Shown here one piece after another: positions 36,671-45,174 of a stretch of DNA of 64,000 nt. Below the pieces are notes generated by a model. That model was not told the origin of the DNA. It saw only the letters and a program-made list of their open reading frames with translations, and searched no databases. This stretch comes from Escherichia coli. Lineage in GTDB: Bacteria; Pseudomonadota; Gammaproteobacteria; Enterobacterales; Enterobacteriaceae. The position numbers and the translations under genes were made by a program. Each line of letters opens with the position of its first letter. Positions within the stretch are counted from its first letter, which is position 1. The stretch lies in NCBI RefSeq assembly GCF_036507355.1, contig NZ_AP027877.1; one strand, 5' to 3'.

Positions 36671-42734
<6,064 letters not shown>

Positions 42735-42978
42735 TACTTACCCGCAGAAATCATTCTGCGGGTATTAAGTTGCTTTCTTATAAATTAATACAGATTAATC
42801 CTGGTTATTTGCTTTATTTATCACCAGTCATCCGGTATAGTTCTTCATAATCTCTGCAAAATCATCGTGTTGTAATATTCTCTCATCACTTTCCATCAAA
42901 TTTTCTTTTTTTCTCCATAATTGGCGCAAAAGTGTTTTTTACACTTTCATTGTTTTACCGTTGCTCTGATTAATTGAC

Positions 42979-42994
42979 GCTAAAGTCAGTAAAG
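42979..42994 (+). promoter_or_regulatory. Possible CpxR-type direct repeat upstream of spy
   Basis: GCTAAAGTCAGTAAAG resembles the GTAAA-N5-GTAAA repeat but the spacing is off by one; about 70-85 bp upstream of the spy ATG. Confidence 0.35.
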
Positions 42995-43063
42995 TTAATC
43001 TCGTCAACACGGCACGCTACTTAAGAAAGCCGTAATAAATAACTGAAAGGAAGGATATAGAAT

Positions 43064-43549
43064 ATGCGTAAATTAACTGCACTGTTTGTTGCCTCTACCC
43101 TGGCTCTTGGCGCGGCTAACCTGGCCCATGCCGCAGACACCACTACCGCAGCACCGGCTGACGCGAAGCCGATGATGCACCACAAAGGCAAGTTCGGTCC
43201 GCATCAGGACATGATGTTCAAAGACCTGAACCTGACCGACGCGCAGAAACAGCAGATCCGCGAAATCATGAAAGGCCAGCGTGACCAGATGAAACGTCCG
43301 CCGCTGGAAGAACGCCGCGCAATGCATGACATCATTGCCAGCGATACTTTCGATAAAGCAAAAGCTGAAGCGCAGATCGAAAAAATGGAAGAGCAGCGCA
43401 AAGCTAACATGCTGGCGCACATGGAAACCCAGAACAAAATTTACAACATCCTGACGCCGGAACAGAAAAAGCAATTTAATGCTAATTTTGAGAAGCGTCT
43501 GACAGAACGTCCAGCGGCAAAAGGTAAAATGCCTGCAACTGCTGAATAA
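43064..43549 (+). CDS. spy: Periplasmic ATP-independent chaperone Spy
   Basis: 161 aa; signal peptide MRKLTALFVASTLALGAANLAHA; helical, charged mature protein. Confidence 0.95.
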   Translation: MRKLTALFVASTLALGAANLAHAADTTTAAPADAKPMMHHKGKFGPHQDMMFKDLNLTDAQKQQIREIMKGQRDQMKRPPLEERRAMHDIIASDTFDKAKAEAQIEKMEEQRKANMLAHMETQNKIYNILTPEQKKQFNANFEKRLTERPAAKGKMPATAE

Positions 43550-43571
43550 TCTTTCAGCCAAAAAACTTAAG

Positions 43572-43635
43572 ACCGCCGGTCTTGTCCACTACCTTGCAGT
43601 AATGCGGTGGACAGGATCGGCGGTTTTCTTTTCTC
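43572..43635 (+). terminator. Probable spy terminator (long imperfect hairpin plus T-rich tract)
   Basis: ACCGCCGGTCTTGTCCAC ... GTGGACAGGATCGGCGGT 18 bp imperfect inverted repeat followed by TTTTCTTTTCTCTTC. Confidence 0.65.
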
Positions 43636-43673
43636 TTCTCAAACAGTTGTAAAAAAAGCCTGATCACCACTAA

Positions 43674-45174
<1,501 letters not shown>

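Follow-up and report, generated by a model that had tools for sequence, protein, structure and literature searches.

The CpxR-like direct repeat upstream of Escherichia coli spy is probably core-promoter DNA rather than a CpxR operator

A 16-nucleotide sequence upstream of the spy gene of Escherichia coli resembles a CpxR box, and the question raised by this locus is whether these letters form an operator for CpxR or belong to another part of the spy promoter. The spy gene encodes a stress chaperone and is a textbook reporter of the Cpx and Bae responses, and its promoter has been used in biosensors. The K-12 spy promoter (b1743) is said to be activated by both CpxR and BaeR, reportedly from work of Raivio in 2000, of Raffa and Raivio in 2002, and of Yamamoto, Ogasawara and Ishihama in 2008, and the last of these studies is said to have footprinted it. 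The promoter considered here is already known, the finding is an ordinary one, and it has little importance beyond correct annotation. The reading favored here, with a probability of about 0.72, places the flagged 16-mer in the core of the known spy promoter, which CpxR and BaeR activate, and does not regard it as a CpxR operator.

The flagged motif and its chance level

The motif lies in the intergenic region between astE, which ends at 42734, and spy, within the window (the whole 64-kb stretch of E. coli DNA that was analysed). Of 5426 complete E. coli genomes, 5423 contained a match to a 401-base query covering 42700-43100, with astE and spy as the annotated features in the matched segment. 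Compared with K-12 MG1655, a single base of the 401 differs (T42891 in the window, C in K-12). The spy promoter of the window is that of the K-12 b1743 locus, its only difference falling in an upstream BaeR-like half-site, and coordinates were converted as window = 43064 + (1825625 - K-12 coordinate). Directly 3' of the astE stop codon, a 9-bp perfect hairpin, CCCGCAGAA-ATCA-TTCTGCGGG (42741-42762), is probably the terminator of the ast operon; a terminator scan did not flag this hairpin because no T-run follows it.

43064-43549, plus strand: spy coding sequence, with its ATG at 43064
42979-42994, plus strand: flagged motif GCTAAAGTCAGTAAAG, with an unconserved left part (42980-42988) and a right part that overlaps the conserved TAAAGT

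The initial annotation had described a CpxR-like direct repeat with 4-bp spacing and a degenerate first repeat, and these letters are indeed present: the motif parses into CTAAA (42980-42984), GTCA and GTAAA (42989-42993), with the two pentamers directly repeated across a 4-bp spacer, and stands 70 bp upstream of the spy ATG. The CpxR consensus box is reportedly GTAAA-N5-GTAAA, as credited to De Wulf in 2002. Like this box, the flagged motif contains directly repeated A-rich pentamers, and one of the two is a perfect GTAAA. Unlike it, the motif either has a 4-bp spacing, in which register CTAAA and GTAAA together show one mismatch, or, when read with a 5-bp spacer as GCTAA-AGTCA-GTAAA, shows two; its first pentamer is also unconserved, and it sits inside the core promoter and not upstream of it.

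Candidates were weighed by mismatch counts, shuffles and conservation. Over the whole 64-kb window, 84 matches to GTAAA-N5-GTAAA with up to two mismatches were observed where 59 were expected, and 10 matches to GTAAA-N4-GTAAA with up to one mismatch where 3.9 were expected. Within the 329-bp intergenic region, which has a GC content of 33%, there were two N5 matches with up to two mismatches (0.94 in shuffles) and one N4 match with up to one mismatch (0.08 in shuffles; P ~0.075 before correcting for the choice of spacing). As a CpxR box, the flagged motif is at chance level in an AT-rich spacer. A second N5 match of equal consensus quality, GTAAAACAATGAAAG, lies on the minus strand at 42944-42958. 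Since the two are equal by consensus, consensus matching alone cannot place the CpxR site and other evidence is needed; a symmetric matrix cannot split them either, because each consists of one perfect and one three-of-five pentamer. What separates the two is conservation, together with a comparison to cpxP.

Conservation and the core promoter

The spy locus was taken from 80 Enterobacteriaceae species, 78 of which were aligned with the window to give 79 sequences covering the 264 bases upstream of the spy start codon. Salmonella alone was added later, following a Spy protein search in which the best 120 matches came only from Escherichia, Citrobacter and Salmonella. Conservation of the promoter was found to be blocky, with runs of TTCTCCATAATTG, which falls within 42908-42925 (mean identity 0.82 over that interval), TTTTTTACACTTTCATTGTTTTAC (mean identity 0.97 for the 42944-42958 box), TTGACG, and GTAAAGTTAATCTCGTCAACACGGC, which starts at 42989.

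The two halves of the flagged motif have very different histories in this alignment. The left pentamer and spacer (42980-42988) have a mean identity of 0.58, the lowest in the core promoter, and vary among ATAAACCCC, CTTAAGCCG, AAAAACGCC, CTGGCGAGC, CTTCTACCG and other forms; the left pentamer itself reads ATAAA, CTAAA, ATTAA or CTTAA, and is GTAAA in none of the 79 species. Positions 42989-42993 have a mean identity of 0.96. T42990, A42991, A42993 and T42995, the last of which is just beyond the right pentamer, are invariant across the 79 species, while G42989 is only 0.84 conserved and is replaced by C or T in 13 of them. A TAnnnT hexamer, as is typical of a sigma-70 -10 element, is found at 42990-42995 in every species (TAAAGT in 69, TAAACT in 8, and TATAGT and TACACT in one each). 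The Salmonella promoter reads CTAAG-ACGG-TTAAAGT, without any GTAAA and with TAnnnT kept, and spy was 9.7-fold up in a Salmonella cpxA mutant (PMC6361445, S2 table). Because these four positions are invariant while G42989 varies and is lost in Salmonella, the conserved unit is the hexamer TAAAGT (42990-42995) and not the GTAAA pentamer.

The resemblance to a CpxR site noted in the initial annotation is real but weak, given the degenerate first repeat and the wrong spacing: the likeness in letters holds, but the motif has not behaved in evolution as a two-pentamer operator, and the right pentamer, read there as a CpxR half-site, has been kept as part of TAAAGT. Of four testable features of a CpxR box, the flagged motif lacks three, in that its spacer is 4 bp and not 5, its half-sites are not both conserved in orthologous promoters, and it is placed between TTGACG and the start region and not upstream of or abutting the -35. 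The following elements are relevant to its position.

42990-42995, plus strand: TAAAGT, most likely the -10 hexamer of the stress-inducible spy promoter, with a start predicted at ~43001-43003
42966-42971, plus strand: CTGATT, 18 bp upstream of TAAAGT, a weak -35-like hexamer that agrees with TTGACA at 3 of 6 positions
42974-42979, plus strand: TTGACG, either the -35 partner of TAATCT or an element 10 bp upstream of TAAAGT (information 1.98 bits)
42996-43001, plus strand: TAATCT, an alternative -10 located 16 bp after TTGACG
43009-43033, plus strand: predicted 5' UTR stem-loop with ACGGC / GCCGT arms, found in nearly every species

In the favored reading, the right half of the motif, (G)TAAAGT (42989-42995), would be the -10 element, with transcription starting at ~43001-43003, and the left half, CTAAAGTCA, would be spacer that is free to vary. 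That TAAAGT is the -10 is most likely on the combined weight of the sequence, its conservation and the cpxP parallel, and the conserved 5' UTR hairpin, beginning at 43009, fits a start just upstream. The accompanying -35 is poor (CTGATT, with an 18-bp spacer); CTGATT or CTGACT occupies 42966-42971 in 64 of 79 species, and a weak -35 would be expected for an activator-dependent promoter. A consensus promoter scan of 42650-43700 returned no promoter-like site, which is unsurprising because the spy promoter is activator-dependent. Besides the poor -35, what speaks against this choice of -10 is that it gives no account of TTGACG, present in 78 of 79 species and replaced by TTGACA in the other.

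TTGACG is the basis of a different arrangement, in which it would be the -35, separated by 16 bp from TAATCT as the -10, with a start at ~43007-43009. The flagged motif would then be the spacer between -35 and -10, still no CpxR operator, and the conserved GTAAAGT would extend the -10 region on its upstream side. TTGACG agrees with the -35 consensus at five of six positions and is invariant across the 79 species apart from the single TTGACA, no species has an insertion or deletion between it and TAATCT, and the UTR hairpin would begin at +1 to +3. However, the critical A2 and T6 of TAATCT are kept in only 60 of 79 species, with AAATAG or GAATAG in its place in Kosakonia and TAATCA in Salmonella. 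A near-consensus -35 would also fit badly with a promoter that is presumably almost silent without its activators, and the arrangement offers no account of the strict invariance of T42990, A42991, A42993 and T42995. It is judged unlikely, and from these sequence comparisons the TAAAGT-based promoter would be preferred over it by roughly three to one.

An activator of the OmpR/PhoB family is not expected to act from within the core promoter. CpxR, as an activator of this type, would accordingly not be expected to act from the flagged motif, which has a core-promoter position whether TAAAGT or TAATCT is the -10.

TTGACG (42974-42979) also forms, with CGTCAA (43002-43007), a perfect 6-bp inverted repeat whose arms are 22 bp apart and flank the -10 region, both arms being invariant or nearly so among the 79 species. 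If TAAAGT is the -10, this pair could reflect a second, overlapping promoter together with a conserved leader, or an operator for a dimeric regulator. It is improbable that the core, with GTAAA(C/G)T and the TTGACG/CGTCAA pair, doubles as an operator, whether as a low-affinity contact for phosphorylated CpxR (CpxR-P) that would cap or time induction or as a clamp of a dimeric regulator on the -10.

Promoters of other classes were sought by eye. A FliA-type candidate, TAAAGTTT-N11-GCCGATAA, matches its first element at 7 of 8 positions and its second at only 2 of 8; a sigma-54 candidate, GGCACG-N4-TT, is without the GC of the -12 element and is in unconserved sequence; and no -35 is present for sigma-E. 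All three were rejected.

The upstream CpxR candidate and the cpxP parallel

The initial annotation had allowed that the true CpxR and BaeR sites might lie elsewhere in 42735-43063, and this suggestion was borne out to the extent that better candidates were found at 42944-42958 for CpxR and at 42908-42925 and 42842-42861 for BaeR. To judge from the sequence, both regulators likely bind 20 to 150 bases upstream of the flagged motif.

42944-42958, minus strand: GTAAAACAATGAAAG, the best candidate for the activating CpxR box, with two mismatches (GTAAA-ACAAT-GAAAG) and N5 spacing
42938-42942, minus strand: a third GTAAA, beside the candidate CpxR box

On the sense strand of this candidate box, all 79 species keep TTTAC and 77 of the 79 keep CTTTC. 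Its pentamers are N5-spaced and conserved, and it is upstream of the putative core promoter, its end being 7 bp from the -35 position if this is CTGATT or 15 bp if it is TTGACG.

Spy and CpxP are paralogues, and cpxP is a canonical CpxR target. For comparison, CpxR ChIP-exo peaks were taken from Choudhary et al. (2020; PMC7657598, Data Set S2), and the K-12 sequence beneath them was examined. Perfect CpxR boxes were present at three of these targets, all with a 5-bp spacer, and the N4 pattern had no match better than two mismatches under the peaks examined.

yccA: perfect CpxR box GTAAAGATGGGTAAA
ppiA: perfect CpxR box GTAAAATTAGGTAAA
cpxP-cpxR: perfect CpxR box GTAAAACAACGTAAA

The sense strand of cpxP reads TTTAC-GTTGT-TTTAC and that of spy CTTTC-ATTGT-TTTAC, in the same orientation and with near-identical spacers. 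The two promoters continue with exactly equal distances, since cpxP has TTTACGTTGTTTTAC, 30 nt and GTAAACT, and spy has CTTTCATTGTTTTAC, 30 nt and GTAAAGT. They are also alike in having an activator ChIP-exo peak over the promoter-proximal GTAAA(C/G)T element. They differ in that the cpxP box is a perfect consensus, whereas in the spy box the second pentamer is GAAAG, and in that the TGACG motif is 10 bp further upstream in cpxP than in spy. Aligned without gaps, the two promoters agree at 32 of 75 positions, a score matched or exceeded at 43 of 63925 offsets in the window; as this identity is modest, the likeness is used as an architectural parallel and not as proof of common descent. Used in this way, it speaks for an activating CpxR box at 42944-42958 and for TAAA(G/C)T being the -10. 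By analogy with cpxP, 42944-42958 is most likely the activating CpxR box, centered at about -51 if TAAAGT is the -10, and phosphorylated CpxR would activate spy from this inverted box, as at cpxP.

The same parallel can be turned toward a direct role for the flagged motif, in which GTAAA (42989-42993), with or without CTAAA, would be an auxiliary contact for CpxR-P that overlaps the -10 and tunes or limits Cpx-dependent transcription. GTAAA is present in 65 of 79 species, and the GTAAACT of cpxP stands at exactly the same 30-nt distance from its CpxR box. According to PMC9753035, with reference to Yamamoto and Ishihama (2006), cpxP has three sites for CpxR-P, one of which extends to +5, and a Gibbs-sampling study picked GTAAACTGTCTCTCG as the Salmonella cpxP motif (PMC6361445). 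Should the cpxP site reaching +5 take in GTAAAC, CpxR-P might likewise touch the corresponding GTAAAG of spy; the statement on the third cpxP site is, however, second-hand and comes without the protected bases. Furthermore, no base of the pentamer is less conserved than the G, and the loss of this G in 13 of 79 species and in Salmonella, together with a partner pentamer that is never GTAAA and is spaced by 4 and not 5 bp, and with the position on the -10, argues against a required role for such a contact. A response-regulator dimer sitting on the -10 would presumably obstruct RNA polymerase, whereas CpxR is an activator of spy, and in one in vivo data set, CpxR ChIP-exo under ethanol, no CpxR peak was called anywhere at spy (PMC7657598). 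An auxiliary contact of this kind is considered highly improbable, and the core-promoter reading is retained for the flagged motif.

Computational scans have put the spy CpxR site in three different places. In the S2 table of PMC6361445, Gibbs sampling chose GTAAAAATAACTGAA, located 16 bp upstream of the ATG, as the Salmonella spy CpxR motif. This choice is computational only and falls in the 3' arm of the UTR hairpin and the ribosome-binding region, where E. coli reads GTAATAAATAACTGA (window 43031-43045, the equivalent of the Salmonella sequence); it was rejected as an operator.

BaeR boxes, ChIP-exo peaks and the 5' untranslated region

Two descriptions of the BaeR site, the consensus TTTTTCTCCATDATTGGC of Nishino (2005) and the box TCTNCANAA of Yamamoto (2008), are quoted in PMC3799227, which also gives CTNCA as the core of the site. 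When applied to the window, they pointed to the following candidates.

42908-42925, plus strand: TTTTTCTCCATAATTGGC, candidate proximal BaeR box, with zero mismatches to TTTTTCTCCATDATTGGC
42842-42861, plus strand: TCTTCATAA-TC-TCTGCAAAA, candidate distal BaeR site made of tandem exact TCTNCANAA boxes with an 11-bp period
42889-42897, plus strand: CTTTCCATC, a BaeR-like half-site 22 bp upstream of the proximal box, which reads CTCTCCAT in K-12 and most genera

Allowing up to three mismatches to TTTTTCTCCATDATTGGC, the segment 42908-42925 is the only match in the 64-kb window. Exact matches to TCTNCANAA number 14 in the 64 kb, three of them upstream of spy (42842-42850, 42853-42861 and 42912-42920), the last being nested in the proximal box. 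Neither TTTTTCTCCATDATTGGC nor TCTNCANAA has a match within the flagged 42979-42994. In the proposed mechanism, BaeR would act from TTTTTCTCCATAATTGGC (42908-42925) and from the upstream TCTNCANAA boxes. The mdtA promoter carries TTTTTCTCCCTTATTGGC, and its box is 9 bp from the -10, compared with 64 bp upstream of TAAAGT at spy. A BaeR-overlapped spy promoter using TACACT (42940-42945), downstream of 42908-42925, was considered and rejected; its geometry is 5 bp off that of mdtA, and the hexamer is TCCCCT in four species.

The single difference between the window and K-12 affects the half-site at 42889-42897, where T42891 turns the TCTCCAT of K-12 into TTTCCAT, at the C of the CTNCA core. This allele is very rare in E. 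coli, an 80-base query that spans it being matched at 99% identity or more in only 3 of 5400 complete genomes. T is also found at this position in three other Escherichia lineages.

Under ethanol, knocking out baeR lowers spy expression by log2 5.8 and knocking out cpxR lowers it by log2 3.0, and the same study found two BaeR ChIP-exo peaks upstream of spy (PMC7657598). When converted to window coordinates, peak_2 maps to 42846-42866, on the distal tandem boxes, and peak_1 (K-12 1825677-1825711) maps to 42978-43012 and covers the flagged motif. On the strength of peak_1, which has a signal-to-noise of 8.23 (PMC7657598, Data Set S2), the flagged region might itself be taken as a BaeR binding site. 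There is, however, no BaeR box there, the best approximation being TCTCGTCAA (42999-43007), with two mismatches to TCTNCANAA. Comparable peaks at other promoters also argue against it: at mdtA, one BaeR peak sits on the box TTTTTCTCCCTTATTGGC and another on the TAGTAT -10 and start region, and the CpxR peak at cpxP is not on the box but 17 bp downstream of it, over GTAAACT and the start region. The likelihood that the flagged region is a BaeR site is close to negligible. Because a core-promoter peak recurs with two different regulators, the signal over an activated core promoter would most simply reflect cross-linking through RNA polymerase, and the flagged motif would lie under such a peak as core-promoter DNA. 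The exact BaeR box at 42908-42925 is without a ChIP-exo peak of its own in this data set, the two called peaks standing off by 42 bp on its upstream side and by 53 bp on its downstream side.

A distal start site has been mapped at window position 42849, 215 nt upstream of the spy ATG, with 152 reads (Kim, 2012). A conserved TATAGT or TATACT hexamer (42836-42841) precedes this start, which is inside both the tandem TCTNCANAA boxes and BaeR peak_2. BaeR at 42842-42861 might repress a distal constitutive promoter, or peak_2 might also be a polymerase footprint.

For promoter trimming or mutation, the favored reading would assign 42979-42994 to basal promoter function and regulation to the candidate operators at 42944-42958, 42908-42925 and 42842-42861.

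Only a few bases downstream of the predicted start, the stem-loop at 43009-43033 is probably a 5' stabilizing hairpin of the spy mRNA. Its loop ranges from 3 to ~30 nt across species, and its arms show compensatory changes to ACGAC/GTCGT and GCGGC/GCCGC. In Cedecea colo and Buttiauxella izardii, an insertion of ~120 nt is found between this hairpin and the ribosome-binding site. The insertion, which might represent a mobile element or a small repeat, folds into a long hairpin, the energy of the entire stretch being -56 to -59 kcal/mol.
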